64,000 nucleotides of DNA from a virus (IMGVR_UViG_3300048904_000202:68007-132006), one strand, 5' to 3'. Shown: positions 7,642 to 56,385, counted from the first letter of the stretch. Numbers and translations are program-made. The notes: generated by a model from the sequence alone, not told the origin.

Positions 7642-7890
7642 CCCGAATGGGGTGCAAATGGGGTGCAAATCCGGCTTTGTTCTGGGTAGCGGCAGGGGTT
7701 TTCAGGAGAGAAACCGAGGGGAGAAGGGCCTTTTAGGCCAAAAACACTGCCTCCCGAAGGCAAGAGCCGTCAAAGTGAATCACTCCAGCGGCTCTCAAAA
7801 TTGGCGGTTTTCTGCGGGTTTCAGGAGAGGTGCTTCTGAGGCCTGTCTTACTGCACCCCAAATGGGGTGCAAATGGGGTGCAACATTTAG
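7641..7890. repeat. att-like region with nested direct repeats (candidate integrase arm-type sites)
   Basis: Two copies of CCCCRAATGGGGTGCAAATGGGGTGCAA (7641-7676, 7855-7890) bracket two copies of GGGTTT(T)CAGGAGAG (7696-7712, 7816-7830); gene-free, abuts integrase 3' end. Confidence 0.5.
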
Positions 7891-9296
7891 GCCGCTTTGA
7901 GGTGCTTCACCGCGTCCTCGGCGGTCTTTTTCGTTTTGGCGCGCCGGGCATTCCGGGCAGCGTTGATCTGTTTGCGGCGCTTCTCGGCCGCAGCTTCGCG
8001 CTCTTCGGCCGTCATGCCCTGTGCCACGTTGAGACGGGTGAAGTGATCCGGCTGTACGTCGAGGCCGGCTCGCTCGACGATTGTCAGCTTGCCTTTCTCG
8101 CCATTCGCGACGGCGAACTTGGCGCACCACGCGTCGGCCGCCGCATTCACTTCGTCCCAGATATCGGTCAGACCTGCCTTCACCGATGCCATCTTCTTGG
8201 GGTTGTAGTGCTTGTAGATCGCGCTGGTTGAGTTCTCGCCGATATGCCCCATGAGGCGGCTGATCTGCGTCTCGTCGCACTCGTTCCATTCCAACATCGA
8301 CGCTACCGTGTGACGGATCGTCTTCGGCACCACGTCCGGTCCGAAGCCGAGAACCTCGCGCATCGTGTTCCAACGGGTGGTCAGGCGCTTGAACCGATTG
8401 CCGTCCTCATCTTTGACCCACGGGCCGGTCCAGCCCTCCATCAGGGCGCTGATGCCGGAGATCGCCGGCACGACGGGGTTGCGCTTCTTCGTGAGCGGGG
8501 CGTCCTTGGGCTGGAGATCGAGCAGATCGAACTCAGGCTTGAACTGATCCTCGACGATGAACTTGAGCGCCGCCTCCGGGCGCATCGCCGTTGCGAGTTG
8601 GAGCAGGATGAAGTGCCAAAGCGGTTCGTCCGAGCGTGCAAACCCGATCATCGCTGAAAGCTCGGCCATGGACAGGACTCGGTCGCGGCGCTTTGGCTTG
8701 ATCTTGCTCGTGAGCTTCTTGCCCGGACCGGGAGCGATAGTGGCGCGCTTCTCTTCAACCGCGTGGTTCAACGCCGCCATGATGATCTGGATATTCTTCT
8801 TGAGCGAGGCGTCGGCCAGCCCTGCGGAAGAGTTGCTGTACTCCTTGCCCTTCCAGACGATCGAGTAGCTGTGCGGCTTCGAGCGCCACCGATGCCAACG
8901 CGCCCATACAGCCGGCGTCAGTTCGGTGAACTTGCAGGCGATACCTGCTTCATCCTGTTTGAGAAACGCGATGAAGGAACGCAGGATCGAGGAGATCGCG
9001 CCAGTTTCCTGTTCGTCGATCGTTTCGCACCCATGCTCATCGTAATAGCGAAGCAGTTCGACGACGACCGATACCTCGGCGTCGTTGTTCTTGGGTGCGT
9101 GCGCGTTGATCCGCGTTAGATGCGCCTCAATGACCTGCTTGGCTTCGGCTACATCCCGGCAACGAGTGCTTCGATACCGATTGCGTCGTTTGTCGGGGTC
9201 GTACCACGCGATCTGCCAGATGTCGGGGGACGCGCCGTCGTCTCGCTTGTCGAGCCAGTAGTCTCCGACGATATGGGGGCTGTCTTCTCGTGCCAC
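7887..9296 (-). CDS. int: tyrosine-type site-specific integrase (P4-like)
   Basis: 469 aa; N-terminal arm-binding-like segment (YWLDKR...WQIAWYD), R..HxxR block (IRHTVASML), catalytic Tyr context YKHYNP; GTG start with GAGGAGA RBS. Confidence 0.9.
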   Translation of the reverse strand: MAREDSPHIVGDYWLDKRDDGASPDIWQIAWYDPDKRRNRYRSTRCRDVAEAKQVIEAHLTRINAHAPKNNDAEVSVVVELLRYYDEHGCETIDEQETGAISSILRSFIAFLKQDEAGIACKFTELTPAVWARWHRWRSKPHSYSIVWKGKEYSNSSAGLADASLKKNIQIIMAALNHAVEEKRATIAPGPGKKLTSKIKPKRRDRVLSMAELSAMIGFARSDEPLWHFILLQLATAMRPEAALKFIVEDQFKPEFDLLDLQPKDAPLTKKRNPVVPAISGISALMEGWTGPWVKDEDGNRFKRLTTRWNTMREVLGFGPDVVPKTIRHTVASMLEWNECDETQISRLMGHIGENSTSAIYKHYNPKKMASVKAGLTDIWDEVNAAADAWCAKFAVANGEKGKLTIVERAGLDVQPDHFTRLNVAQGMTAEEREAAAEKRRKQINAARNARRAKTKKTAEDAVKHLKAA

Positions 9297-13703: not shown

Positions 13704-14143
13704 TAGGCCAGCACCTTCACGTCGGCGCGATATCCGCCTTCGCGCGTCCAGAGTGGAACGTTGCTGCCCTCGCCATAGCCTTCGATAAAGTGCATCCTGC
13801 CGGCGTTCACGTAGACCGTAACGTTGCCGAAAAGGTCGCGATTCGAGTCACCACGCCAGCGGATATAGAAGTCGAAGATGCCGCGTCCATTCGGGTCGAG
13901 TTCGACGCCGGCACGAAAGTCCGACCAAAAGCCATAGTCGTGCAGATCGGTGTCGTTGAAGTCGTCGGCATGGTTGGTAACCAGCGCCGCGTTGATCGAC
14001 GTAGGCTTACTGGTGTCCTCGATGTTGCACCGGATGCCGGGCTCCAACAGAATGCTGTTGAAGGGAGGACCTGAGTCACCGCCCTCGTGCAAGGCGCACA
14101 TCTTGATGATCTCGATCTGCTCAGGCGTGGGCTTGAACTTCAT
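13703..14143 (-). CDS. hypothetical protein
   Basis: 146-aa ORF beginning right after CGACAGGGAGACACAAC leader. Confidence 0.55.
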   Translation of the reverse strand: MKFKPTPEQIEIIKMCALHEGGDSGPPFNSILLEPGIRCNIEDTSKPTSINAALVTNHADDFNDTDLHDYGFWSDFRAGVELDPNGRGIFDFYIRWRGDSNRDLFGNVTVYVNAGRMHFIEGYGEGSNVPLWTREGGYRADVKVLA

Positions 14144-18234: not shown

Positions 18235-18452
18235 AATTTCAAGTGTTCCCCGTTACAGGCCTTGGTCAACCAGAGCGCTCCGATGACCGGTGGGTGTTGA
18301 TGCCATGGTTCTCCACAGACCTCGCACAAACAGTTCTGATCTGTCCGCCTACACTCACAAGCATCGAACCTGATGCGGTCTTCCTCCGACAGCAGATGAT
18401 AGGCATTGCCATTATGGTCATGCTGTTGTCGGAGGTCGAAAGGTATCATCAA
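18231..18452 (-). CDS. Cys-rich small protein
   Basis: 73 aa with CECRRTDQNCLCEVCGEPWHQH cluster; ATGA overlap with nadV. Confidence 0.45.
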   Translation of the reverse strand: MMIPFDLRQQHDHNGNAYHLLSEEDRIRFDACECRRTDQNCLCEVCGEPWHQHPPVIGALWLTKACNGEHLKL

Positions 18453-19945
18453 GCCGGCGTCGCCGGTTGTGACCGCCAGAAGCGGGCGGCCTCGCGGACC
18501 TGCTCGAAGGTAGGCGGGTTCACCAACTCGCCGTTCTCAAAGCTGGTCTGCAACCAATCCCGCTCGCCGGACTGGAGTTCGTCCGGATGGATCGTGACAA
18601 ACGTCTCGTACGGCTCCGGAAAATGGTCAACCGTCCGGCGGACGACCGCGAAACGGCCGGCCTTTGACCGCTTGGACGGATCGGTAGCGACTTCCTTGCG
18701 GATCGCGAAGACGTCGCCGTCGATCGTCACCTCCGATGCCTTCAAGGCGAAGCGATGCGTATCGCGCTCGACCTCGTGCATCATCAAACCGCCACCGGAG
18801 CCGAACACGAGATTGTCGACCGACCACTTACGATAAGCGACGCGCTGGAGAATGCGGCGAAGGGACTCTTCGTTGATCCCGTCGCCTTGAATTAGCCGCA
18901 CGTAAGCCGGCAGTACGCGGTAACCCTTCTCGTTCATCATCCAGCCGGTGTGCTTACCGATCAGATCGAGACAGTGACCGACGTTGTCGACTGGATCGCC
19001 CGAGTCTGGCCGCAAAACCAGCGACATGTTCGAGTCGATCAGCTTCTCCCGTAGACCACAACCGCCCTTGTTCTGCGGCGTCAGCCACATGTTGATCGCG
19101 TTGTCCTGATCGTAGGTATCGATCACAACCGAGACCGGATAGCGACCGCCGAGCGGATTAACCTCTTGGCCGAACTGCTCGATGATGTGTTCGAAGAACG
19201 CCTGCTCGTTGTCCTTGCCCCACGACGTAGTCACCGAGTGTTCCGACGCCGGGATCGAATATCCGAGCATCGCGTCGGTGCGATAAGTGTGCTGGCCGAA
19301 CAGGATACCCATAAGGTTATCGGTCACTTGGAAGTTGACCAGATGAGCCATACCGGAGACCGCTGCGTCCTCAGTGGTGCGGCAACCGCGTGCCGAGAAG
19401 TCGACGACCTTGAACTCGGCCGTACCTTCGGTGCCGGTTTCGGCCAGATACCGCTCGATCAGCCGCCACCAGCGCATGCCACGCGTCGCGATCGTGGTGG
19501 GCATCCAGCAGCGCATGAGGAGCGTTTCGACCGTGATGCACAGGCCGGCGCAGTCCGGATCGAGCGACTCGACCGTCGCTAGGACCGTGCCCTGTGGAAC
19601 GACGACGCCTTCCGGAAGCTGCTTGACGCGCATCGGCAGCTTTCCGCCATGACGTTCCCAGACGATCATAGCCGTATCGGCATCGAACGGCACGCCGTGT
19701 GCCGGCAGGAACTTGGCGGCGTGGTTGATGAATTTCGGCGTCCAAAGCTGGGTCAGGAAGTACCGAAGCGTGTAGGTATTGCCGAACCACATGACTTCAT
19801 TGAACTCACCACCCTTCCGGGCTTCGAGATAGCCGTACTCTGCGGTCAGGCCGGGATGTTGGAACTTCCAGTGGGACGCCTTGTAGGTGTCCTTGTTCAT
19901 GATCGGCTGCGTCAGAAGCTCGCCGATATTATCAATATATTCCAT
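18449..19945 (-). CDS. nadV: nicotinamide phosphoribosyltransferase (NadV/NAMPT)
   Basis: 498 aa; N-terminal NKDTYKASHWKFQ (DSYK-type motif) and NAMPT-like length; AAGGGAG RBS. Confidence 0.85.
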   Translation of the reverse strand: MEYIDNIGELLTQPIMNKDTYKASHWKFQHPGLTAEYGYLEARKGGEFNEVMWFGNTYTLRYFLTQLWTPKFINHAAKFLPAHGVPFDADTAMIVWERHGGKLPMRVKQLPEGVVVPQGTVLATVESLDPDCAGLCITVETLLMRCWMPTTIATRGMRWWRLIERYLAETGTEGTAEFKVVDFSARGCRTTEDAAVSGMAHLVNFQVTDNLMGILFGQHTYRTDAMLGYSIPASEHSVTTSWGKDNEQAFFEHIIEQFGQEVNPLGGRYPVSVVIDTYDQDNAINMWLTPQNKGGCGLREKLIDSNMSLVLRPDSGDPVDNVGHCLDLIGKHTGWMMNEKGYRVLPAYVRLIQGDGINEESLRRILQRVAYRKWSVDNLVFGSGGGLMMHEVERDTHRFALKASEVTIDGDVFAIRKEVATDPSKRSKAGRFAVVRRTVDHFPEPYETFVTIHPDELQSGERDWLQTSFENGELVNPPTFEQVREAARFWRSQPATPA

Positions 19946-19957
19946 GTCGGCTCCCTT

Positions 19958-21047
19958 CTAAATGGTCAGATCGCGGAACGAGTTCAGGTAGAACTCGAAC
20001 GGATTGTAATGATCCTCGAACAGCATCGAGCGGACCACCTCGTCGGTATTCCACCACCGTGCCTGCCGGGCATCGTCGGCGCCCTTCACGATAGGACGCG
20101 GCAGCGATGCCGGGATCAGCAGGCCGAACGCCATCGAGAAGGTGACTTCGCGGTTCGAGCGCCACGGGTTGTCCAGCATCTTCTCGCCGCGTATCCACGA
20201 CGCGAGCGTGTCGCGGGTGATGAAGTCGTTGTGTTCGACGATGCCGGTTTCCTGATCGACCTCGTCGAGCGCCGCGTCGAGGAAGGTCTGGTAGGCGCGC
20301 TTGTGTCCGCCGGGCGATGCCCAGAGACCCTTGCCGGGCATACGATCGCGCTGCACGAGGCAGACGGCGCCGGCATGGAACATCCACATGTCAGCACACG
20401 GGAACTGCTGCGGATCGCCGGTGTAGGGATTGGGCTGGAACTCGGTCAGATAGTTTTTCATGAACTTGTACTCGTCGCGCATGAGCGCGAACTGAGCCGT
20501 GTTCACCCACTGGCGCAGGAACAGATAGGTGCCCTGCGGAATGATCTGGACCTCCGAGCGGTAGATGCACTCGACCGCCGCTGCTGGGTCCCCGGCGTCG
20601 TAGATCGTGTTGCGGATGTCGGTGGCCGAGACCAGAGAATCGGTCGCACCGGTGACAGCCTGCGTCGAGACCGAATCCCAGCCTCGGAATAGCTTGAGGT
20701 AGTAGGACGATCCGTCCTTGGAGAAGCCGACCAGCGCAATGCGGGGCTCGTGATCGAACGACAGGCGCTTGGCCTGCTCGGTCACGACCTTCTGCACGTC
20801 GCGCACCCAGAGCAGGTCGTTGGCGCGGTCCTCGATCCCGAAGATGAATACGCGATCGTTCTCGGCCGGCGTGAGCGACGCTCGGATCATCTGGCTCACC
20901 TCGTCGAAGGTGTGCGGGTTCTTGAAGTGTGGCGCTTCGTTGACCGATCCGATGGTCACGAATGTATATTGTGCCGCGACCAAGCCGGCGCGGATGTTAG
21001 CGATATGAGCGCTGGTGGGTGGCCGCATCCGGCCTGCGAAAACGCAG
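19958..21047 (-). CDS. nadM: bifunctional NMN adenylyltransferase / Nudix hydrolase (NadM-Nudix-like)
   Basis: TTG start after CTAGGGAGACACAAC; N-terminal GRMRPPTSAHIANI resembles the GRFQPFHxGH nucleotidyltransferase motif; C-terminal degenerate Nudix box GGHKRAYQTFLDAALDEVDQETGI. Confidence 0.7.
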
Positions 21048-21069
21048 ATATCGTGCAAGTTGTGTCTCC

Positions 21070-21531
21070 CTAGTTGTTGGCGATGATGTTCACTTCGATG
21101 CCGAAGCTCTCTTCGAACTTTTTGGCGAGTTCGCGGAGCGTCTTTCGGGCATCGTTCTCGTTGCCGCCAGCAGGTCCAAGCTGGATGTAGGAGGCAACCC
21201 ACGAGGTATTCTCGATGCATACACGGAGGATCGCCTTTTCCAGATTGGTCAAGGGCTCCGCCAGCGTCAGCATGTAGACCATTTCACAAAGGCCCGTGGA
21301 TGCCTCCATGATCGCCTCGCGATTCCAGCCTTCCTTTAGGAGGATCGCTAGCGGGTCTGTCGGGTCTTCCGGCTCGCGCTCCGGGAGATCGCTAATTTGT
21401 GCAAGGCCCCACATCATGGCCTCAAGTTCTTTGGTCTGGAGGCGCAGCCTCGCGTGATTCTCGGTCATATGCACTCCTAAGTTGAGTGCGAGTAGCAGCG
21501 CCCAGCCATTTTTGCTAGTGGGAATGAGCAT
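21070..21531 (-). CDS. hypothetical protein
   Basis: 153-aa ORF; stop TAG overlaps the nadM leader; a 56-aa ORF (about 21534-21704) lies upstream. Confidence 0.45.
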   Translation of the reverse strand: MLIPTSKNGWALLLALNLGVHMTENHARLRLQTKELEAMMWGLAQISDLPEREPEDPTDPLAILLKEGWNREAIMEASTGLCEMVYMLTLAEPLTNLEKAILRVCIENTSWVASYIQLGPAGGNENDARKTLRELAKKFEESFGIEVNIIANN

Positions 21532-22802: not shown

Positions 22803-23136
22803 AATACTCCTTTCTCACTGCGTCACCCAGCGGGTGGAGTTGCCAGTATTCGTCCGCGCCGATCTCGCGCCACGGCATGCCGTAGTGGGCTGCGATCGGT
22901 GGCATGATATGTTCGAGCAGTGCCTTCTTCTTGTCGCGCCAAATGAAACCGGTCTGAACCGCGAGCGATCCATCGAGCCCGAAGATGTCATAACCGATGT
23001 CGTAGGCGATCTGCGTCAACGGGCTAACGTGGTGACCGAGCGGTACCTTAACGAAGCCTTCCCCGCGCCGCTTGGGAACGAGGATGTTGACCTCGTAAGT
23101 ATCCGGACGCGCCAATACCAATAGTTCTTTCATCAA
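22795..23136 (-). CDS. hypothetical protein
   Basis: 113-aa ORF, TGATGATG overlap with the 772-aa gene. Confidence 0.5.
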   Translation of the reverse strand: MMKELLVLARPDTYEVNILVPKRRGEGFVKVPLGHHVSPLTQIAYDIGYDIFGLDGSLAVQTGFIWRDKKKALLEHIMPPIAAHYGMPWREIGADEYWQLHPLGDAVRKEYYD

Positions 23137-25451
23137 CGCCGCCGGTGCTTTTGATCGATACCGTCCTCGTCGTACTCAGCCCAATTCGAGTGATCGGCGA
23201 AACTTCGATTACCGTGGCCGCCGGTCCGGATGACCCAACCAGTCGAACGAGCGTCTGACATGTCTGGTAGCTCAGGCGCGGTCAGCCGGTTGCGGATGCG
23301 CGCGAGCGCCCGCTTCGACAGCGCGACCCGGACGCCGAAGTCCAACTGGTGCCATGGATTCTGGAGCCGCCATTCGAGCGGATCGATCCGATCGAGGATC
23401 GAGTTGCCGGTATAGGCGTCATCCATGCCGGGGTTCCACATGCGCAGAAACAGTGGCAACTCATCCACCGGTACGCCGGTAATCTCGGCCAAGTCTTCGG
23501 GACAGCCGGGACGGACCTGCAAGGCGTAAGTCGATCGGGTGTCGTCGAAGTAGCAGAGGTATGCACCGCCGCGCGATTGCGTCCAGCCGTTGCTCAAGGT
23601 GATCTGCGAGTCGGACATGTAGCCCCATTCGTACAAGCGATCGGTGCCCTTCTCCTTGGTCCACGCCTCGATGTCGATTAGGCGCGAGAAAGTATAGCGG
23701 TCCCAGCCGGTCCAGATTTTGTGAGCGTCCACATTTTTTTCGCCGAACCAGTCCTCGCCAGTCTCGATATTGGCGTCGAAGGCACGCGTGCCGGCGGGGC
23801 GCTTGTGTTCGATATGCTCGCCCTCGGGAAAGCAAGCATAACGCAGCACGTTGTCGATGTTCGCTTCGACGCGCTCGCGGTACCATTTGAGGATGCCGGG
23901 ACGCTCGCGTACGAACTCATCATCGGCGGCGCGCTGGATGCCTCGGGCAAAGTTCGATCGAGCGATGAACTTGCGATCCGCGTCGATCTGCTCGCGGGTG
24001 CCGAAGTTGGTCGCGTTCACCGCATCCACTGGATAGGCACGGACACCTTCCGGGAGCTTTATGCCGAAGGTCGTGTTGACGCCTTTCTCCGTGGCCGGAA
24101 GGTGCGAGATCGCGTTGTCAGTACGGACGGGGACATCCTTGCGGCCCCACGTCTCGCCCTTCTCGACCGGCTTGCTCAAGAGGTAGGGCTTTTCGGTCGC
24201 CACGCCGCCATGGGCGAGTAGGTTCAGGGCCTGCTCGGGCACGAGGTGACCGTAGCGCTCCTCCAGCCACTTGTTGCGGCCGAAATTGTGCTTCTGGTTG
24301 CCATATGGCTTGCCCACATCCTTCTCGGTCAGCGCACCGGTACGAACGTCGTCCACGGCTAGCGGCGCGAGGCGTAGCGGCTCATATCCGGTAATCGGCA
24401 GATTGGCGTTGACGGCCGCCGAGAGGAGGACGTTCTGGTCCTCCAGTCGAAGCATCTCGGTGGTGTAAGAAAGCTGGCGCTGTGGGAACGGCTGGTTCCA
24501 ATACTTTTCGACCAGCAAGTCAAACACCTGAACCAGCCACGCCGCCGTGACGATCTCCAACTCGCCAAGCTTGGCAAACTCGAAGAACTCCGGCTGGTGT
24601 CCGACCAGACCCTTCTCGTGGCTCTGGCGGTACTTGTCGTGATACGGATCGCCCTTCTCATTGTAGCCGATGTTGAGCTTGTCGTAGGGAAACCAGTTCT
24701 TGCCCACGCGCCGACTATGCTCACGATCCGGGCGGCGCGACATCTGCCGGGCGAACGGATGCGTGTATTCTGGCACGTCGGTGATCAGCAGCAGGTTGCC
24801 GCCGTTCCGCAGCGCGATGGCGAAATAGCTCTGGAGTTCGTCGGGGTCGCGGACAAGGTTCAGCGACATGCCACTCGGCATCGAACAGGCGTGTTCAACG
24901 AGGCTGTTGACGTTCCAGTACGAATACATGACCGGGTTGTAGAGCGGACGCACCTCGGGAGGATCAATCTCGCCGGTGAGGAACTGATCAGTCCGCATCC
25001 GGTCGGCCGACTTGAGCGCGTCATTGCGGACCTGCGCGACGTAGGCGTCCTTGCTCAGGAACTCTCCGATCGCGTCGCCGTCACATCCGATATGGACCAG
25101 CGCCTTGCGAAGCTGCTCGCGGTAGGTGTCTGCCGCTTCGAGGATCGTCACGTCTTTGATGAGCTTCTTGAACTCACGGACCTTCGAGATGTAGTCGAAG
25201 ACGTAATCCTCGTCGGCGTCGATCTCGGCGATCGACATCGTGGCCTTCTTGAAATACCACGACGAGATGTCGGCCAGCAGCAGGTAGGCGGTGACCAGAG
25301 TTGGGTCGAGTGTCATCGACTCCTTGATCTCGTCGTTCGCCTGCTGGAGGTTGCGCTTTCCCCAATCGTAGCTCTCGGAGTTCGGGTCCATGCCGATCAA
25401 CTCGAACCACAGGGTGATAGCCCTGTTAAAATGTTCTGCCGAGGTGATCAT
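23133..25451 (-). CDS. large ORFan protein (772 aa)
   Basis: Longest ORF in the window; no Walker or other motif recognised; preceded by a variant promoter-leader. Confidence 0.65.
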   Translation of the reverse strand: MITSAEHFNRAITLWFELIGMDPNSESYDWGKRNLQQANDEIKESMTLDPTLVTAYLLLADISSWYFKKATMSIAEIDADEDYVFDYISKVREFKKLIKDVTILEAADTYREQLRKALVHIGCDGDAIGEFLSKDAYVAQVRNDALKSADRMRTDQFLTGEIDPPEVRPLYNPVMYSYWNVNSLVEHACSMPSGMSLNLVRDPDELQSYFAIALRNGGNLLLITDVPEYTHPFARQMSRRPDREHSRRVGKNWFPYDKLNIGYNEKGDPYHDKYRQSHEKGLVGHQPEFFEFAKLGELEIVTAAWLVQVFDLLVEKYWNQPFPQRQLSYTTEMLRLEDQNVLLSAAVNANLPITGYEPLRLAPLAVDDVRTGALTEKDVGKPYGNQKHNFGRNKWLEERYGHLVPEQALNLLAHGGVATEKPYLLSKPVEKGETWGRKDVPVRTDNAISHLPATEKGVNTTFGIKLPEGVRAYPVDAVNATNFGTREQIDADRKFIARSNFARGIQRAADDEFVRERPGILKWYRERVEANIDNVLRYACFPEGEHIEHKRPAGTRAFDANIETGEDWFGEKNVDAHKIWTGWDRYTFSRLIDIEAWTKEKGTDRLYEWGYMSDSQITLSNGWTQSRGGAYLCYFDDTRSTYALQVRPGCPEDLAEITGVPVDELPLFLRMWNPGMDDAYTGNSILDRIDPLEWRLQNPWHQLDFGVRVALSKRALARIRNRLTAPELPDMSDARSTGWVIRTGGHGNRSFADHSNWAEYDEDGIDQKHRRR

Positions 25452-27187: not shown

Positions 27188-27343
27188 CCGTGCGTTTCCC
27201 TTGTACGGTCGCGTCTTGGTCCGCGAACATTTGCTACGTTTGCCGGTCGGCCACAGGCCGATCTTGTTGATCTTCCCACACCGTGCGCAAACTACCTTGT
27301 TCGCTCGCAGCGGTAGTATCTGGGCATGGAAGACGTGATTCAT
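27184..27343 (-). CDS. small zinc-ribbon protein (52 aa)
   Basis: Below ORF cutoff; ATGA overlap with AAA+ stop; CARCGKINK...KCSRTK motif. Confidence 0.4.
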
Positions 27344-28566
27344 GCCGCGAGCAGCATCTGGCGCATCTCGGCACCCGACATCGACACGTCGGTCGAGACG
27401 GCGAAATTGCTCGGGTCCTTCCCGAAGAGGGCCGCCATGCGCTGAAACTCCGAAAAGCCGAGGTCGCGCAACTCGATCGCCATATCGAAACGGCCCGGCC
27501 GGCGGAGCGCTTCGTCGAGGCGCTCGGGATGGTTCGTTGTCGCGATCGTCATGAGGCCGTCAGGCGCGATCAGGCCGTCGAGGATGTTGAGCATCGCCGA
27601 GAGCGTCACCGGCTTCTTGGGGCCGTCAGGTCCTTCTTCGCCTGTCGGGGCAGGGTTTTGCGCCGGCACGTTCCGATTGGTGTTCGCGCCGGCCGCGTCG
27701 AAGTCCTCCAGCACGAGAAGCTTTTTGTTCCAGTCCTGCCCATTCGCGACGAGATCGGTAAGCACCTGATCGCTGTCCACCGAACCGAGGTTCAGATAGT
27801 AGATCGAGCGGCCGAGGGCGGACGCCAGCGCGTGAATGAGAGACGATTTACCATTGCCCGGCGGTCCGTAGAGCAGCACGCCGATGCGGTGAGGAAGACC
27901 GAGGCGGTGGTTCTCTTCACGCTTGGTCGAGAACTCCGCGAGGCGGTTGAGGATCATATTCGCCGCGTCGTCTGCGGTGAATATGGTATCCATGCTCCGC
28001 AAGGGCAGCTTGCCGGCGCGATTCCACCACGAGCCCGAGTTGATGTAGAGCGGGACGGAGGTAAACTCTTCGTCCGAGGTACCCGCCATGCGCTTCACGT
28101 CCTCGGCGAAAGCCTCGACCACCCTCTTCGATCGTGTGAAGAACGTGACCTCGGTGTGTTCCTTGAACTTCGAGGTGTTGTCCGCTTCCTCGCGCTGGCG
28201 ATGTACCAACACGAGATGGCGGCGATAGAAACCGATGTGCGTACCATAGCCGACAGCAAGGCCGTGGTGCTTGGTCTGGTAATCTTCTTCGATCGAGTCC
28301 CACTTCTCCTCGGCCGAATAGTTGAAGTTGCGAGCGGTCTTCTGCCACACGACATTCTTCGTCACGTAGCGGACCACGGCGTCATAGTCCGGAAGGTCGT
28401 TGTTCCAACGGACCTCTACCGTGACGCACTTCTTGAGGAAGCCCCAGAGCTTCATCGGTACCGACCGCATCAGGTAAGTCGCGGTGGTCGCCGGCCCGGC
28501 GACGAGGGCCGCCTGCATGATCTGGTTGTGCTGGACCATGCTGGACAGAGAGGCGAACAGGCTCAT
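27340..28566 (-). CDS. BCS1-like AAA+ ATPase
   Basis: Walker A LLYGPPGNGKSSLIHALA, Walker B LLVLEDFDA, sensor region SAMLNILDG, TTNHPERLDEALRRPGRFD; about 190-aa N-terminal BCS1_N-like domain; start revised to MSLFASL. Confidence 0.8.
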   Translation of the reverse strand: MSLFASLSSMVQHNQIMQAALVAGPATTATYLMRSVPMKLWGFLKKCVTVEVRWNNDLPDYDAVVRYVTKNVVWQKTARNFNYSAEEKWDSIEEDYQTKHHGLAVGYGTHIGFYRRHLVLVHRQREEADNTSKFKEHTEVTFFTRSKRVVEAFAEDVKRMAGTSDEEFTSVPLYINSGSWWNRAGKLPLRSMDTIFTADDAANMILNRLAEFSTKREENHRLGLPHRIGVLLYGPPGNGKSSLIHALASALGRSIYYLNLGSVDSDQVLTDLVANGQDWNKKLLVLEDFDAAGANTNRNVPAQNPAPTGEEGPDGPKKPVTLSAMLNILDGLIAPDGLMTIATTNHPERLDEALRRPGRFDMAIELRDLGFSEFQRMAALFGKDPSNFAVSTDVSMSGAEMRQMLLAA

Positions 28567-28568
28567 GG

Positions 28569-28790
28569 TCAGTCCTTGATGCTCAGGGTGATCTCGCGGG
28601 GTGTGCCCGTGAAGCCGCCATTCGACGCTGCGTTCGAGGCGGCCGAGCGGGTGTTTAATATGCGTGCACCTTCGAGCGTATCGCTCAGCGATACGCGGGC
28701 GGTGTAGGCTCCCGGACTGGTCGCCTTGCGGGTCGAGACGAACTTGCCGTCGTCGGTCTGAAATACAAAATGAGCCAAGATCAGCCCCAC
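28569..28790 (-). CDS. hypothetical protein
   Basis: 73 aa, GTG start overlapping upstream stop. Confidence 0.35.
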   Translation of the reverse strand: MGLILAHFVFQTDDGKFVSTRKATSPGAYTARVSLSDTLEGARILNTRSAASNAASNGGFTGTPREITLSIKD

Positions 28791-29285
28791 TTGATGAGAT
28801 TGTTGATTGGATCGAGGTCGAGCGGGAAGAACTCGCGTTGGGTGGCGATCTTCTTCTTTTCAACCAGTTTGCGGCACTTGCGGGCGCAGTCCGTGGTTCC
28901 TACGAAACCTTCGAACACCGCCAGAACATCCGCCTCGAAATCGAGCAGCATGGCCTCGTTTCGCATGGCACCGGCGGCCTCACCGTAGCGGTCCCAATCT
29001 GCGAAATAACGCCGCCAAGGGACGCTGTTATCCACCGCCCATTCGAGGGCGAATGTATCAACGCCGCGAGCGCATCCGGCACCGAGTTCGACGATCGGGC
29101 CGAACCTCTCGCCGAAGTGAATCGAGTCAAGATGACCGTTGACGTACCCTCGGTCCTTGATTTCCCGGCCACCGGTGACAGCTATGCGAAAACCTACTGG
29201 GTCCGGAAAGGAAGCAGGTAGCGACCTCCCGACCTGCAAGATATTCTCCAGATCGTAGAAGCTCAGCGGCTTGAGTTTCACCGCG
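28781..29285 (-). CDS. SLOG-fold (DprA/DUF2493-like) protein
   Basis: GTG start in GTGA overlap; motifs AVTGGREIKD and GAGCARGVDTFALEWAV resemble DprA/LOG-like Rossmann proteins. Confidence 0.55.
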
Positions 29286-52311: not shown

Positions 52312-52694
52312 GCGGTCCTCGGAAAGTCGTAGTTAGGGCGGTGGTCGTCACCCCACGACACGGAACTGACCAGTCGGCCATCCGGCTCGTAAGAGTGGCG
52401 GGCGAAGAAGTATCGGATGTTCACATGCCAATGCGGGTAGGATTCGCTCGGCGTCTGGATCAGGATCGAGACATATGGGTCACCCCAACGAGCGGCCTCG
52501 TCCTCGGCGAACCGATGGGCGTAAGCATTGCAGTCAAAAAGACCTTGGAACGACCACTTGTTCTCGACCCATTCATTGTGGGTATTGTGAGCCAGTACCC
52601 AGACGGCCGTGTGATCAAAGGGCTGCGGTACGCCTAGGAACGGCGGTAGTTGCGGAAGCGCCCGATCATAGCCGGGCAAAGTTGTTAGACTCAC
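52308..52694 (-). CDS. hypothetical protein
   Basis: 128-aa ORF. Confidence 0.45.
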   Translation of the reverse strand: MSLTTLPGYDRALPQLPPFLGVPQPFDHTAVWVLAHNTHNEWVENKWSFQGLFDCNAYAHRFAEDEAARWGDPYVSILIQTPSESYPHWHVNIRYFFARHSYEPDGRLVSSVSWGDDHRPNYDFPRTA

Positions 52695-53182
52695 GCGGCG
52701 TACTCAGTTGCGTATTCCGACGATCTCCACCACGCGAGCGGCGACTTGAAAGCGTTATAGCGTTCGAAGAGGATGTCTTCGGGGATACGATGGTCCTCGG
52801 GACGTGTCCGGTTACGCTCCGCCAGCAAGGGAAGAGGGCGGTCGAACACCACCAACCGAACAGGCAAGTTCAAGCGCTCGGCATAAGAGATGAACGGCGC
52901 GACTGCCGGCTGATCTATTCCGGTATCGGTGACCGCCCAAGAAGGCTCCGGCCAATAGAACAACGCGTTGAGCATTGCTTGTGTCACGACGGCGCTGCAC
53001 TCCGCACGATCGAACTCGCTGGCGTGATAAGCCTTCCGTGATCCGAACAGACACTCGCGAAAGCGGTCACGTTCCAAGCGCAGTGTGGACGCCGCAAGGT
53101 TGGCGTCGGCCCATGTTGACTTACCGGCGCCGGGGCAGCCGATCGTGATCGTCAGGCCGTTGTAGCGATCACCGTGGATCAT
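52691..53182 (-). CDS. polynucleotide 5'-kinase (T4 Pnk kinase-domain-like, no phosphatase domain)
   Basis: LTITIGCPGAGKSTWADAN nearly identical to T4 Pnk P-loop (ILTIGCPGSGKSTWAREF), followed by RLERDRFRE and conserved downstream blocks; ends after about 160 aa. Confidence 0.75.
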   Translation of the reverse strand: MIHGDRYNGLTITIGCPGAGKSTWADANLAASTLRLERDRFRECLFGSRKAYHASEFDRAECSAVVTQAMLNALFYWPEPSWAVTDTGIDQPAVAPFISYAERLNLPVRLVVFDRPLPLLAERNRTRPEDHRIPEDILFERYNAFKSPLAWWRSSEYATEYAA

Positions 53183-53326
53183 GACGGTCCTCATAGATCG
53201 AGTTGGCGGGACGGATCACCCAGCCGAACATGTTGGCGAGTTGGCGGCGCATCCATGGGGTCGATTCACGTGATGTGGCGGCGACGACTTGGTCCCACGA
53301 GGAGCCTTGGGATTTGGCAGTGATGG

Positions 53327-53620
53327 TCATGCCGCGAGTTCCCGCAGGTATGTGATGACCGCTGGGTTTCCTTTCCCACCGAACCGATCGTTTTCTTCGT
53401 AGATCATCCGACGAACATGTCGCGGTATCTCAGTATCGTTGGCAGTGGCGACATTGAGTTCCTTCATGATGCGACCCATGGCGCAGAAACAAACAGCTTC
53501 GGGCGAGGAGCTAGTAACGCGTTCACCTAGAGCGTTCGCGGCCAGATAGCCGGCGATGTGCTTGTCCGGATTGGCTTCCAGCCAGTCGGCGGCCCGGAGA
53601 ATAGCTTCCTTGTTCATGCC
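53327..53620 (-). CDS. paralog family member P5 (MNKEAIxRAADWLEANPDK...CFCAxGRI...YLRELAA)
   Basis: 97 aa; start ATGAACAAGGAAGC in ATGA overlap with P4 stop; a 57-aa ORF fills 53197-53330. Confidence 0.55.
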   Translation of the reverse strand, partial: GMNKEAILRAADWLEANPDKHIAGYLAANALGERVTSSSPEAVCFCAMGRIMKELNVATANDTEIPRHVRRMIYEENDRFGGKGNPAVITYLRELAA

Positions 53621-53955
53621 GCGAGCCTCCGCAGGTGCGCGACGACCGCCGGGTTTCCATTCGGCCACACGTTATTAGTCGGAATCAAATCGCGATCGTT
53701 GACGCGCCAGATATCCATGGATTGCTCTTTATCGAGCCCCACCGCGCGGTTGATGGTGTCGTAGCTTCTCGTACCGGGCGGTGAATCCACATTGGCTTCC
53801 AGAGCAATTCTCCCGAGGGCGCAAAAGCATTCCGCCAATGGTGATGTAGGTGAACACCGCTGACCAAGGACATCGATCGCCAGCGATCCGGCGATGTGCT
53901 TGTCCGGATTGGCTTCCAGCCAGTCGGCGGCGCGGAGGATAGCTTCCTTGTTCAT
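53614..53955 (-). CDS. paralog family member P4
   Basis: 113 aa; ORF-track start (54129) extends into the upstream gene, so start revised to MNKEAILRAADW. Confidence 0.55.
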   Translation of the reverse strand: MNKEAILRAADWLEANPDKHIAGSLAIDVLGQRCSPTSPLAECFCALGRIALEANVDSPPGTRSYDTINRAVGLDKEQSMDIWRVNDRDLIPTNNVWPNGNPAVVAHLRRLAA

Positions 53956-54704
53956 ACGAAATACGGTGTCCTGTCCTTGAACCCGTTGAGTGCCTTGGTC
54001 TCGCGAATGTATTCGTAGAGCTTGGCAAGTAGGTCCGGGTCGTGTTGGCGAGGATCGATGCGCGCGGTGAGGATCGCGTCGATCGCTTCGATGTTCTGGG
54101 CGGCGAGTTCGTCCCTGCCGCAAAAGCAATCGGGGATGCGGGCATATTCCTCTGCGACCGCCGGCACCTCAAAGAGGCGGCAGAGTTCTAGAATTTCGGT
54201 CTTCGAGAAGACATTGATCGGCTGGACCGACACGCTCTTGGCGAGTGCGGTATAGGTTCCCAACGCCTTCTCGGTGTTGTTCATTGTCCCTACGACCCAG
54301 AAGTTCTCACCGGGGTCGCGCACCGTGACCTTGACGCTACCGAACTCATCGACCGCGACGTGGTTTAGCGCCCGCAGGTGCAAGTCAGCCCAGCGCTGTG
54401 GGTCGAAGTTCCCGCCGAGTGGCGACAGACATTCTACCTTGGCGGACGGGCAATGCCGCGCCAGCCACCACAGAATGTTGGCCTCGAACCAAGTGGGCTT
54501 ACGCCGTTGGTGATCCGCATAGTGGATGCCCCAGACGCGATCGGCGATTCCCATAATCTCCGCCGCCTCATAGACGAGAGTGAAGGCGATGATGCTGTCG
54601 GTGCCGGACAGGCCCATGAGGAGGCCGGGGACCGGGGTCTGCGACATTCGCATTTTCGCGACGAGACGATCCCGCGCGCGGAGGAATTTGTCAGCGACGC
54701 TCAT
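53952..54704 (-). CDS. NadE-like PP-loop ATP pyrophosphatase (NH3-dependent NAD+ synthetase-like)
   Basis: LLMGLSGTDSIIAF matches NadE LVLGISGGQDS; later VVGTMNNTEKALGTYT matches NadE VVGTDHAAEAITGFFT; start revised to MSVADKF (ATGA overlap with P3). Confidence 0.55.
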   Translation of the reverse strand: MSVADKFLRARDRLVAKMRMSQTPVPGLLMGLSGTDSIIAFTLVYEAAEIMGIADRVWGIHYADHQRRKPTWFEANILWWLARHCPSAKVECLSPLGGNFDPQRWADLHLRALNHVAVDEFGSVKVTVRDPGENFWVVGTMNNTEKALGTYTALAKSVSVQPINVFSKTEILELCRLFEVPAVAEEYARIPDCFCGRDELAAQNIEAIDAILTARIDPRQHDPDLLAKLYEYIRETKALNGFKDRTPYFV

Positions 54705-55078
54705 GCCGCGAGCTTCCGCAGGTACGGGATCACATCCGGATTGCCGCGCCATAGCGGCTTCTCGGCGGTCTCCATGGTGTCCACGTCATAACGTTCATTG
54801 ATCGCATCATTGAGCTTGACGATCGCGGCGAACTGCGTGCCGTCGAGGCCGGAGATGTGGTAGAACCACCGGCGGTTGTCGCGATCGACGCCGTGCATGG
54901 AAGTCGGGGCCTCGCCACACTCCTTGGCAATGCGACCGATGGCGCAGAAGCACTCGGCGTCAGGGTGGTTGGGACCAACATAGTCACCGGCGGCGTTGGC
55001 CGCGTAGAAGGCGGCCATGTGCTTGTCGGGGTTCGCTTCCAGCCAGTCGGCGGCGCGGCGGATAGCTTCCTTGTTCAT
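54701..55078 (-). CDS. paralog family member P3
   Basis: 125 aa; shared N-terminus MNKEAIRRAADWLEANPDKH, CFCAIGRI, C-terminus YLRKLAA. Confidence 0.55.
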   Translation of the reverse strand: MNKEAIRRAADWLEANPDKHMAAFYAANAAGDYVGPNHPDAECFCAIGRIAKECGEAPTSMHGVDRDNRRWFYHISGLDGTQFAAIVKLNDAINERYDVDTMETAEKPLWRGNPDVIPYLRKLAA

Positions 55079-55410
55079 GCGAGTAATTCCCTGAGGGTGG
55101 CGGCCATGTATCGGGCGGCGGTTTTTGGCGGCATCGCCTCGACGACGGCGTCGTTGATCTCGGTCAGCCTATCCAAAGTCTCGAAGGACAGGCCGGTGAC
55201 GCGAGGAAACAGTTCTTGGGGCCGGTGTGCGACTGTCGCCTTGACGCCAGTCTCGTGAATCAATCGACCTACCGTGCAAAAACACACGGCGAGGCTTCCG
55301 GTCGGTCCTGTCCTGCGGCCCTCCGCAGTGCGGGCGAAATCACCGGCAAGCAGCTTGTCGGGGTTACGCTCGATCCAGTCGGCGGCGCGGCGGATTGCTT
55401 CGACGTTCAC
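55075..55410 (-). CDS. paralog family member P2 (most diverged)
   Basis: 111 aa; GTG start in GTGA overlap; MNVEAIRRAADWIERNPDK...CFCTVGRL...LRELLA. Confidence 0.55.
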   Translation of the reverse strand: MNVEAIRRAADWIERNPDKLLAGDFARTAEGRRTGPTGSLAVCFCTVGRLIHETGVKATVAHRPQELFPRVTGLSFETLDRLTEINDAVVEAMPPKTAARYMAATLRELLA

Positions 55411-55685
55411 GCGGTCACCTTGGCATTGTCGAGGAGGGCGATCATGTTCCGAAGCGCCATGGCATGGCGTTCGAAATAGCCCAGTCGGAGCATATTGAAG
55501 TCCCGCTCCCGGATGTAGAATCCGACACTAGACGAGAAGGCACTCCGCTCTGCTATGGCGATAATGTTGTTCGCCATCTGCGTGTGGGCGCGGCTGTTAC
55601 GTCCCTTGTCTTCGGCGTCGGTAAGCATCTGCTCCAACGCCTCACGGTCGTTCGCGGCGTAATCTCTGGGATCATAATATTTCAC
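55407..55685 (-). CDS. hypothetical protein
   Basis: GTG start in GTGA overlap with upstream stop; ORF-track start overlaps neighbour by 100 nt. Confidence 0.4.
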   Translation of the reverse strand: MKYYDPRDYAANDREALEQMLTDAEDKGRNSRAHTQMANNIIAIAERSAFSSSVGFYIRERDFNMLRLGYFERHAMALRNMIALLDNAKVTA

Positions 55686-56074
55686 GCCGCGAGCCTTTCC
55701 TTGATGTGTGAGGCGTAGACCGCTTTGCCCCGGATGCGACCGCGCGCCGCCGGGTGGACGATCTGGATATGCGGTGTCGCCCACCGGCGAAGATGTGCGG
55801 CGACCTTCTCGCCCATCGCGACAACCGTCCAGCCGGCGCGGTGTGCCTGATCGACGACATCGCCGCTGCGGACGCGCGGCAGTTCGATCGCGTCAGGGTG
55901 GTCGCCGAACAGGTTGAAGAATTGGACACACGTCGTGTCGGTCGGATCGATCCCGAGCGGCTTGAGCGCGTCGAAGAGTTGTTTGGCTGCCAGACCGCCG
56001 TCCTGCCACGTGATGTTCTTGGCGTGGGCGGTTGGGGAGGGCTTCTCTCCTACGAAGAAGTATCGCTGGGTCAT
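55682..56074 (-). CDS. small protein with UDG-superfamily-like motifs
   Basis: 130 aa; FFVGEKPS (cf. GE[AG]PG) and IVHPAARG (cf. HPAA/HPSP); ends ...KERLAA like the paralog family. Confidence 0.4.
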   Translation of the reverse strand: MTQRYFFVGEKPSPTAHAKNITWQDGGLAAKQLFDALKPLGIDPTDTTCVQFFNLFGDHPDAIELPRVRSGDVVDQAHRAGWTVVAMGEKVAAHLRRWATPHIQIVHPAARGRIRGKAVYASHIKERLAA

Positions 56075-56385
56075 GCCGCGAGTTTCCGCAGATACGTGAT
56101 GACGGTCGTCTTGCTGCTGGCAGTGTCGTTCATGGACCAGATGTCCGAGGACTGGTCAAAGGTCAGACCGGCAGCCTTCTGGATAGGCTCATAGCCGCTG
56201 ATGCGGGGGATCACATGGACGCCGGCTTCCTTCGCAATGCGGCCGAGCGCGCAGAAACATGTCGCTCGTGAAGATGTCGGCGAGACGGGAGTTCCGAGGT
56301 CCGTAGTCGCTAGGTCCCCTGTGATATGCTTGTCGGGATTTGCTTCCAGCCAGTCGGCAGCGCGGAGAATGGCGTCACGGTTCAA
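56071..56385 (-). CDS. paralog family member P1
   Basis: 104 aa; TTG start in TTGA overlap; MNRDAILRAADWLEANPDKH...CFCALGRI...YLRKLAA. Confidence 0.55.
   Translation of the reverse strand: MNRDAILRAADWLEANPDKHITGDLATTDLGTPVSPTSSRATCFCALGRIAKEAGVHVIPRISGYEPIQKAAGLTFDQSSDIWSMNDTASSKTTVITYLRKLAA

Follow-up and report, generated by a model that had tools for sequence, protein, structure and literature searches.

When a phage encodes enzymes that rebuild nicotinamide adenine dinucleotide (NAD+) in a host whose defenses deplete it, what becomes of a Nudix domain fused to one of these enzymes? The Nudix domain of NadM proteins has been described as NAD+-cleaving and as a regulator of NAD+ levels (PMC9503650). 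The question is raised by a 64-kb stretch of DNA (IMGVR_UViG_3300048904_000202:68007-132006, hereafter the window) that forms part of a 164-kb (164,476-bp) phage genome. In it, NadV, a nicotinamide phosphoribosyltransferase (NAMPT), is encoded next to NadM-Nudix, a nicotinamide mononucleotide (NMN) adenylyltransferase fused to a Nudix domain, and a distant third gene encodes a NadE-like protein. An earlier note on the window had pointed to a 498-aa NadV at 18449 adjoining NadM-Nudix and had likened the pair to the NadV/NatV module of phage KVP40. The genes and the quoted motifs are present on the minus strand, and the pair is indeed of the KVP40 type, now called NARP2. The identities, folds, and neighborhoods of the genes, the states of their motifs, fixation of the variant in its clade, and purifying selection are established here; enzymatic activities and the loss of hydrolysis are what we infer.

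The Nudix box of NadM-Nudix and its relatives

The Nudix box is a loop-helix-loop that binds metal ions, which orient the diphosphate (PMC5389931). Its canonical form, GX5EX7REUXEEXGU, is represented by GGFLECDETIAQAIIRELFEETNI in Francisella and by GGHKHEKETFLDAAIRELQEETNI in KVP40. The window's box reads G251-HKRAY-Q257-TFLDAAL-D265-E266-V-D-Q269-E270-T-G-I; replacements affect three of its five conserved charged positions (E257Q, R265D, and E269Q), a lysine (K253) lies within it, and E266 and E270 are retained. The helix of the box (residues 259-271) is modeled confidently by AlphaFold (AF2). Proper alignment to NadM-Nudix structures and phage homologs did not restore a canonical box: the DEVDQE that the earlier note had called degenerate persists, and its suggestion that the Nudix moiety is inactive or repurposed is a reasonable reading given that degeneracy. 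Outside the box, residues that are invariant throughout the family (D296, P298, R300, S301, D328, D329, A330, and D349) are retained, as are the segments DNPWRS.R, GADDA, and EDH.

Among 5.8 billion proteins searched, 403 NadM-Nudix homologs were found at E ≤ 1e-30, the best 120 of which were aligned together with phage references. The Q...L-D-E-x-x-Q-E-T box is shared by 13 sequences (the window, P0002-P0009, and P0012-P0015; 55-100% identity, on contigs of up to 308 kb), and every one of the remaining ~110 aligned sequences has RE..EE. The variant box was found outside this clade neither among the 120 nearest database proteins nor in cultured phages at least 49% identical, and a scan of IMG/VR yielded only one additional clade member (on a 308-kb contig), plus Sphingobium phage Lacusarx. 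Set against 20 sequences from the sister clade, whose box is canonical, the 13 variant sequences show fixed differences at only five positions over the whole protein (H15T, V253K, E257Q, R265D, and E269Q), four of which are in or beside the Nudix box.

A box of this kind could mark a domain decaying under relaxed selection toward a pseudo-domain, a view to which the non-canonical motif itself and a modest Pfam NUDIX score (34 bits, flagged as "weak" in one relative) would lend themselves. However, the Nudix domains of the variant clade are as similar to one another (70.1% mean pairwise identity) as those of the canonical clade (69.9%), and in both clades the adenylyltransferase domain is less conserved than the Nudix domain (62% and 61%, respectively). 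Between the window and a relative with an 81%-identical protein (L009), the ratio of nonsynonymous to synonymous substitution rates (dN/dS) is 0.21 in the adenylyltransferase part and 0.22 in the Nudix part, with a synonymous divergence (dS) of ~0.6. The variant residues are invariant in all 13 sequences despite synonymous differences among relatives in the codons for T15, K253, D265, and Q269, and the AF2 model is confident; taken with the low dN/dS, this makes decay barely credible. In view of the clade-wide fixation of these changes, a degree of conservation in the Nudix domain equal to that of canonical relatives, and a low dN/dS, we read the active-site helix as having been specifically rewritten and then held under purifying selection across the clade, a point that the earlier note had missed.

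Possible roles of the remodeled Nudix domain

On balance, it is probable that this domain has lost hydrolysis of ADP-ribose (ADPR) and NAD(H), or retains it at a strongly reduced level, and that it still binds a ligand. The argument is by analogy. Nudix domains of NrtR proteins, the structurally closest to that of NadM, have perturbed signatures and no detectable ADPR pyrophosphatase (ADPRase) activity, and respond to ADPR as an effector; restoring the canonical signature in Slr1690 raised kcat 600-fold (PMC2330246). Similarly, the ADPR-gating NUDT9H domain of TRPM2 reads RILRQE where active NUDT9 reads REFGEE (PMC5473349). After NadM-Nudix itself, the best Nudix-only structural matches of the window's model were the NrtR structures 2fml and 3gz8. 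The analogy with NrtR and NUDT9H makes loss of hydrolysis the most likely outcome, and such a loss would also fit the biology, as cleavage of NAD+ would be of no benefit to a phage rebuilding NAD+ against a depleting defense.

Under this proposal, NadV would convert nicotinamide and phosphoribosyl pyrophosphate (PRPP) to NMN, and the N-terminal domain of NadM-Nudix would adenylylate NMN to NAD+. The Nudix helix, with K253, Q257, D265, and Q269 replacing V, E, R, and E, would have lost its ADPR/NAD(H) pyrophosphatase activity entirely or in large part and kept its fold and nucleotide binding. NadM-Nudix would then spare the dinucleotide pool under rebuilding, with the Nudix domain in a structural or ligand-binding role. 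Lastly, the distant NadE-like protein, as an adenylate-forming enzyme, would most likely amidate nicotinic acid adenine dinucleotide (NaAD) or nicotinic acid mononucleotide (NaMN), opening the Preiss-Handler pool of the host to the phage.

Several observations pull the other way where hydrolysis is concerned. E266 (of "RE") and E270 (of "EE"), which from work on MutT and ADPRases we take to be the principal metal ligand and base positions, are both retained, so that residual or altered Nudix hydrolysis is possible. Active Nudix enzymes with non-canonical boxes are also known, such as GDP-mannose mannosyl hydrolase (RLx2AE) and YffH (KEx2EE) (PMC5389931). In addition, the variant state appears to be evolutionarily labile. 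In a neighbor-joining (NJ) distance tree, the variant sequences and two metagenomic ones, P0010 and P0011 (61-63% identical), were monophyletic in 88 of 100 bootstraps, and the latter two, which carry TxAH, K253, D257, R265, and E269 and a near-canonical D...RELGEET box, fell among the variant sequences in 95 of 100. Two histories would fit this tree: a return to the near-canonical box by reversion at several sites, or more than one, parallel origin of Q-D-Q.

The domain might thus have remained a working pyrophosphatase whose metal coordination was rewired or whose substrate changed (to a different NAD-derived nucleotide, ADPR-derived signals, or ADPR-PP), the four coupled substitutions having retuned its catalysis. 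The invariance of E266 and E270, the preserved G...GU frame of the box, and strong purifying selection would all be expected of an active enzyme, the odd-box enzymes mentioned above show that altered chemistry can accompany such motifs (PMC5389931), and the substitutions form a coordinated set, in which V253K introduces a lysine and R265D reverses a charge, that resembles rewiring more than random loss. Yet three of the five charged residues are gone, and comparable changes in NrtR/Slr1690 and TRPM2 NUDT9H nearly abolish hydrolysis. Moreover, the regions that recognize the substrate carry no further fixed change specific to the clade, an observation that speaks against a new substrate. We regard continued activity as the main rival reading, though an unlikely one.

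More speculative, and quite improbable, is a combination in which the Nudix domain acts as an ADPR sensor, its non-hydrolytic pocket taking up ADPR freed by TIR, SIR2, or SEFIR cleavage of NAD+ and thereby switching on or boosting NAD+ synthesis by the NMN adenylyltransferase (NMNAT), or sequesters ADPR or ADPR-based signals, and the NadE-like protein is an NMN synthetase feeding NadM from host NaMN. If the sensor were real, it would make for a NARP2 that is triggered by defense and so escapes the constitutive drain on PRPP described for the KVP40 pathway (bioRxiv 10.1101/2024.02.11.579819). It would also parallel NrtR, for which ADPR build-up was proposed to signal the need for NAD replenishment (PMC2330246).

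L009 encodes, ~2 kb downstream of NadV (13731-14036), a standalone Nudix protein of 101 aa whose box reads REWLEET, and a protein of this kind could supply the hydrolase in trans in some clade members. Within the 64-kb window, phmmer detected no second Nudix gene, PncA, PncB, or glutamine-dependent NadE.

The operon, its phage, and the NadE-like gene

NadM-Nudix consists of an NMNAT domain (approximately residues 1-170), a helical linker, and the Nudix domain (approximately residues 221-366). NCBIfam NadM-Nudix models (PRK05379) match it end to end (best E = 2e-65, residues 55-406 of a 420-aa open reading frame, ORF), and phmmer aligns it to solved NadM-Nudix proteins (PDB 2qjt, 2.6e-32; 2qjo, 9e-30). 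The AF2 model, built from 40 homologs, has a mean predicted local distance difference test (pLDDT) score of 91.4, and in Foldseek it superimposes on 2qjo, 2qjt, and 2r5w with template modeling (TM) scores of 0.82-0.91 and root-mean-square deviations of 2.2-3.2 Å.

The earlier note had also remarked on PPTSAH in place of PFHxGH in the adenylyltransferase. The difference is real: solved NadM-Nudix enzymes have GRFQPFH(K/L)GH, Lacusarx and Erythrobacter phage XM05 have GRFRPFHAGH, and alignment confirms H→T and G→A replacements within HxGH in the window's protein. It is not a loss of the motif, however, as the published consensus for the NMNAT ATP site, GxFxPx[H/T]xxH plus ISSTxxR (PMC5889475), is matched by GRMRPPTSAH save for F→M. 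The second motif (VSATDIR) is intact, T15 and H18 are fixed in the variant clade, T146 and R149 are invariant in the alignments, and other phage subclades with a canonical Nudix box repeatedly show T-x-x-H or G-x-Q-H (PFTDAH and PFGPQH). Given that T-x-A-H lies within the (H/T)xxH range and that T15, H18, T146, and R149 are conserved, the adenylyltransferase domain has probably kept its activity; the published consensus and the conserved T15 and H18 led us to reject PPTSAH as a sign of an inactive enzyme. On the opposite side of the balance, the best NCBIfam score of NadM-Nudix (221 bits, against an equivalog cut-off of 397) falls under every equivalog cut-off, and Pfam detects only the Nudix half, with no CTP_transf_like (PF01467) match. 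It is therefore possible that NMNAT activity is reduced.

A mirror image of the window's case is seen in the subclade formed by Erythrobacter phage vB_EliS-L02 (L02; L003 4001-5077), P0040, P0041, P0050, P0051, and P0054. There the Nudix box is canonical and HxGH has become G-x-Q-H (MRARPFGPQH), with loss of the first His and the Gly, and the adenylyltransferase might be impaired.

NadV matches Pfam NAMPT_N (PF18127) and NAPRTase (PF04095), both over cut-off, NCBIfam equivalog PRK09198 (437 bits; cut-off 405), PHROG 448 (1e-120), and bacterial and mammalian NAMPT structures (2.6e-96 for the best, 7yqo, to 1e-85). The segments VDFSARG, AHLVNF, RPDSGDP, QGDGI, and FGSGGGL, which belong to an active site whose functional roles are known from human NAMPT, are conserved in alignment with 7yqo and 8igz. 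By these matches, NadV is a canonical, ordinary NAMPT. An identity as Namat of NARP1 was set aside, since the NAMPT equivalog cut-off is passed and the gene is operonic with Nmnat, although no systematic search of the window for an Adps/Prs-like gene was made.

All three genes lie on the minus strand, and the operon region is transcribed leftward (Table 1). NadM-Nudix begins with TTG at 21058, where relatives have ATG at the homologous codon. The longest ORF reaches 21220 (420 aa), and its extension overlaps the upstream gene, which ends with a TAG stop at 21070-21072, immediately followed by GGGAGA. As the longer ORF runs into the upstream gene and GGGAGA lies six bases ahead of the TTG, the latter is taken as the real start; genes called independently on an identical Logan contig include one of 366 aa here, and in the JGI annotation the gene begins at a downstream ATG. 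Of the span of 18449-21047 proposed earlier for the pair, the 18449 end holds, and 21047 is out of frame with the true start at 21058. Between the TAG stop of NadM-Nudix and the downstream NadV start at 19945 lie 12 nt, in which no minus-strand terminator-like site was found. An Nampt-clade NadV and an Nmnat homolog in the same phage genome is the gene content by which NARP2 is recognized, and from its layout the pair is a NARP2-type operon, a known arrangement. E-values of 7.6e-131 (NadV), 2e-65 (NadM-Nudix), and 8e-42 (NadE-like, against PHROG 11189) exclude a chance-ORF origin of the three genes.

Table 1. Positions of the genes and motifs discussed in the text (window coordinates unless a contig is named).
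Feature	Position	Strand	Basis
Remodeled Nudix box, GHKRAYQTFLDAALDEVDQETGI	20240-20308	minus	alignment to structures and phage homologs
ATP motif GRMRPPTSAH, T-x-A-H variant of HxGH	21005-21034	minus	alignment to structures and phage homologs
Second NMNAT motif SATDIR (ISSTxxR type)	20612-20629	minus	alignment
NadM-Nudix (NatV-like), 366 aa, 1,101 nt	19958-21058	minus	ORF and start-site reading
Shine-Dalgarno-like GGGAGA, 6 nt 5' of the NadM-Nudix TTG	21065-21070	minus	sequence reading
NadV / NAMPT, 498 aa, with its own AAGGGAG ribosome-binding site	18449-19945	minus	ORF call and domain matches
NadE-fold PP-loop ATP pyrophosphatase, PHROG 11189 family, 250 aa	53952-54704	minus	profile and fold matches
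Shortened PP-loop SGTDS, family-invariant	54594-54608	minus	profile alignment
CFCGR motif, at the position of the NadE PSADL loop	54114-54128	minus	family alignment
PncB ... PncA-like / NadE-like gene strings	L012 5366-9800; L017 1826-7765		gene context

The window has a GC content of ~60%. Searched by megablast, 50,697 phage records contained no nucleotide match to the operon, and relatives were recognized at the protein level only. NadM-Nudix is most similar to the proteins of XM05 (55% identity in the alignment, 52.5% by tblastn), Lacusarx (52% and 50.9%, respectively), and L02 (49%). All three are large siphophages (130-152 kb) in which NadM-Nudix is followed by NadV, an order also seen in metagenomic relatives. 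Because its closest cultured NadM-Nudix relatives are these phages and the gene order is the same, the window is assigned on sequence grounds to an uncultivated Lacusarx-like phage, whose host is probably an alphaproteobacterium.

The third gene had been described earlier as encoding a NadE-like PP-loop protein with SGTDS inside a paralog array at 53952-54704, all of which was seen, and profile and structure matches bear out the NadE fold. Searched alone, the protein matches NadE weakly: 3.7e-4 and 20.1 bits against Pfam PF02540 (gathering score 21), 5e-7 and 29 bits against NCBIfam PRK13980 (cut-off 255), 20.6 bits against TIGR00552 (63.65), and 9e-4 over 64 residues against PDB 1xng. It belongs to PHROG 11189, "NAD synthetase" (8e-42), a family of ~118 database proteins, many with a precomputed PF02540 match. 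A profile of 39 family sequences found only NH3-dependent NadE in the PDB (3fiu, 2e-11; 3p52, 1.6e-9; 1xng; 2e18; and 4q16), and the 25 best PDB fold matches of its AF2 model (pLDDT 95.3) are all NadE (TM 0.57-0.69). Profile searches returned NAMPT, NadM-Nudix, and NadE matches for the three proteins, in agreement with their first assignment. GLSGTDS is one residue shorter than GLSGGxDS and aligns with a gap to GLSGGIDS of 3fiu and 3p52; it had been presented as an oddity of this gene and is in fact invariant across the family. Also invariant are E145 and K168, which align with NadE. Assignment to the NadE fold is sound; membership in the NAD synthetases is not.

Gene neighborhoods elsewhere provide a link to pyridine nucleotides. 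In two independent, large, phage-like contigs, L012 and L017, an isochorismatase/PncA-like gene lies immediately upstream of the NadE-like gene and a PncB-type NAPRTase 4-5 kb upstream, and in L012 a canonical glutamine-dependent NadE (585 aa) follows 1 kb downstream. These strings resemble a Preiss-Handler-type module of phages, one where NadE and the short NadE-like enzyme would not duplicate each other. In an alphaproteobacterial metagenome-assembled genome, the gene is chromosomal and sits among housekeeping genes. The family also occurs in 17 cultured-phage records (Caulobacter CcrColossus-like, Xanthomonas XacN1, and Xoo-sp13), annotated as NAD synthetase, and among the matches listed it co-occurs with NadM-Nudix in XacN1 and Xoo-sp13; no homolog was found in XM05, Lacusarx, or L02 at E ≤ 1e-3. 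These annotations, along with a published nadE in jumbo phages (PMC11662467), contradict the earlier view that a NadE-like gene alongside NadV and NadM is unusual for phages.

From these matches and neighbors, a role in NAD metabolism is likely, and the protein most likely uses ATP to amidate NaAD or NaMN. NaMN is an attractive substrate because a canonical NadE coexists with the gene in L012, and the best PDB match, 3fiu, is presumably an NMN synthetase of Francisella acting together with NadM; an enzyme of that type would account for such coexistence. The deamido-NAD to NAD step put forward in the earlier note is not established, however: the TK[YF]GD segment is absent, and one family member lies within 1 kb of a canonical glutamine-dependent NadE, beside which a plain NaAD amidase would be redundant.

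Other features count against amidation of a pyridine nucleotide and would suit a different substrate, for example in a thiolation or amidation that uses a three-cysteine metal or Fe-S site, the NAD annotation being then an artefact of the fold. The PP-loop is shortened. The family has PDCxCGR, in which C193, C195, G196, and R197 are invariant, and a nearly invariant third cysteine (C175), and the three cysteines have no counterpart in NadE. The segment GYxTK[YF]GD, which in NadE serves in substrate or intermediate binding, is not conserved; the family's "Lgkysilak" aligns to "MGYFTKFGD" of 3fiu, and conservation is lacking at the K and D positions. Scores are below Pfam and NCBIfam cut-offs, lower-ranked fold matches include the [4Fe-4S] tRNA thiolases NcsA and TtuA, and in the window, XacN1, and CcrColossus the gene sits among unrelated genes, with no NAD gene adjacent. 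Nevertheless, all significant sequence matches and the best fold matches are NadE, and the PncA-like and PncB neighbors and the co-occurrence with NadM-Nudix speak for NAD metabolism, such that another substrate is conceivable but doubtful.

The NadE-like gene overlaps DUF6197-like paralogs on both sides through ATGA (upstream stop with its own ATG, and its own TGA with the downstream ATG), an arrangement by which it is translationally coupled to both. The tandem array that houses it (53327-56385, minus strand) contains at least five paralogs of 104-125 aa that begin MN(K/R/V)EAI(L/R)RAADW(L/I)E(A/R)NPDK and match DUF6197 weakly (E = 1e-3, under the cut-off). Their C-F-C-x-x-G-R resembles the invariant C-F-C-G-R of the NadE-like protein, possibly by coincidence. 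Just downstream of the array lies a gene for an AAA_33/polynucleotide-kinase-like P-loop protein (PHROG 505, 7e-18; 52691-53194, minus strand).

Further genes of the window deserve mention. A gene for a YAcAr protein (PF10686, SLOG superfamily; 28781-29281, minus strand) lies ~8 kb upstream of the NAD operon, beside one encoding BCS1_N and AAA ATPase domains (27340-28566, minus strand), and L009 likewise has YAcAr upstream of the operon. Viral SLOG domains were predicted to sense or process ADPR derivatives (PMC9503650), and the YAcAr protein may be a further piece of a phage NAD/ADPR toolkit. A 772-aa ORF (23133-25451, minus strand) is kept in identical Logan contigs and has no Pfam or PHROG match. 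A 469-aa ORF (7887-9296, minus strand) has weak phage integrase and SAM-like domain matches (E = 1e-4, under cut-offs); L009 encodes a tyrosine integrase ~9 kb downstream of NadV, and Lacusarx also has one (XerS-like). These integrase-type genes hint at a temperate or recombinase-bearing lifestyle.

Significance and comparison with known systems

NARP2, composed of Nampt and Nmnat, converts nicotinamide and PRPP to NMN, and NMN and ATP to NAD+; it was shown to counter Thoeris, DSR, SIR2-HerA, and SEFIR, the KVP40 version rebuilding NAD+ and overcoming NAD+-depleting defenses, and it is found in ~1.1% of phage genomes (bioRxiv 10.1101/2024.02.11.579819). It is among the few known viral routes that repair immune damage rather than block an immune protein, and its second enzyme carries a Nudix hydrolase domain. 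The distribution of NARP2-type genes in phages was surveyed earlier (PMC9503650), phage nadE and complete Preiss-Handler clusters were reported in gut jumbo phages (PMC11662467), and "NAD synthetase" is among the shared genes of alphaproteobacterial T4-like phages (PMC10783043). The NARP2 pair and phage nadE are thus already known; we found no description of a NatV clade in which a Q/D/Q/K Nudix box is fixed and under selection. The clade amounts to a natural experiment in which essentially only the catalytic Nudix helix and one residue of the ATP motif were changed and then kept, and it suggests that in some hosts the hydrolase is not needed for rebuilding NAD+ or is detrimental to it; alternatively, the domain may have turned into a ligand sensor. 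The NadE-fold family, with its short PP-loop, CxCGR, and PncA/PncB neighbors, suggests that phages also make use of deamidated pyridine nucleotides, a route known from database annotations.

The nearest functional precedent, KVP40 NadV/NatV, comprises the same two phage-encoded enzyme families, and the window's NadM-Nudix is 33.5% identical to NatV over 84% of the query. In contrast to KVP40, the window's genes are adjacent, with NadM-Nudix preceding NadV, TSAH replaces HxGH, and three of the five charged box residues are lost and K253 is gained; NatV itself has a canonical GHKHEK-E...RELQEET. Among cultured phages, XM05, Lacusarx, and L02 are the closest NadM-Nudix relatives (49-55% identity) and share the operon layout. 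XM05 and Lacusarx differ from the window in being canonical at both motifs, and L02 has GPQH for HxGH and a canonical Nudix box. The bacterial NadM-Nudix enzymes of Synechocystis (2qjo) and Francisella tularensis (2qjt/2r5w) have the same two-domain fold, SxTxxR, and the conserved Nudix residues outside the box. However, they are only 25-28% identical to the window's protein, read GRFQPFHxGH and a canonical RELxEET, and are ADPR pyrophosphatases.

For the third gene, the comparison is with NH3-dependent NadE (Francisella 3fiu and Campylobacter 3p52), which shares the fold (TM 0.6-0.69), the place of the PP-loop, and the aligned E145 and K168. It differs in that the NadE-like SGTDS is shorter, TK[YF]GD is missing, PDCxCGR and a third cysteine are present, and identity is 12-20%.

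The remodeled Nudix domain itself is best compared with NrtR and TRPM2 NUDT9H, ADPRase-type Nudix folds with perturbed signatures, which bind ADPR as an effector without cleaving it. Unlike in those proteins, the window's Nudix domain is fused to an enzyme domain, and its replacements form one fixed, conserved set. NrtR also has a C-terminal winged-helix DNA-binding domain, whereas the window's protein ends at the Nudix domain and is thus not an NrtR member. By analogy, its Nudix domain may nonetheless work as that of NrtR does.

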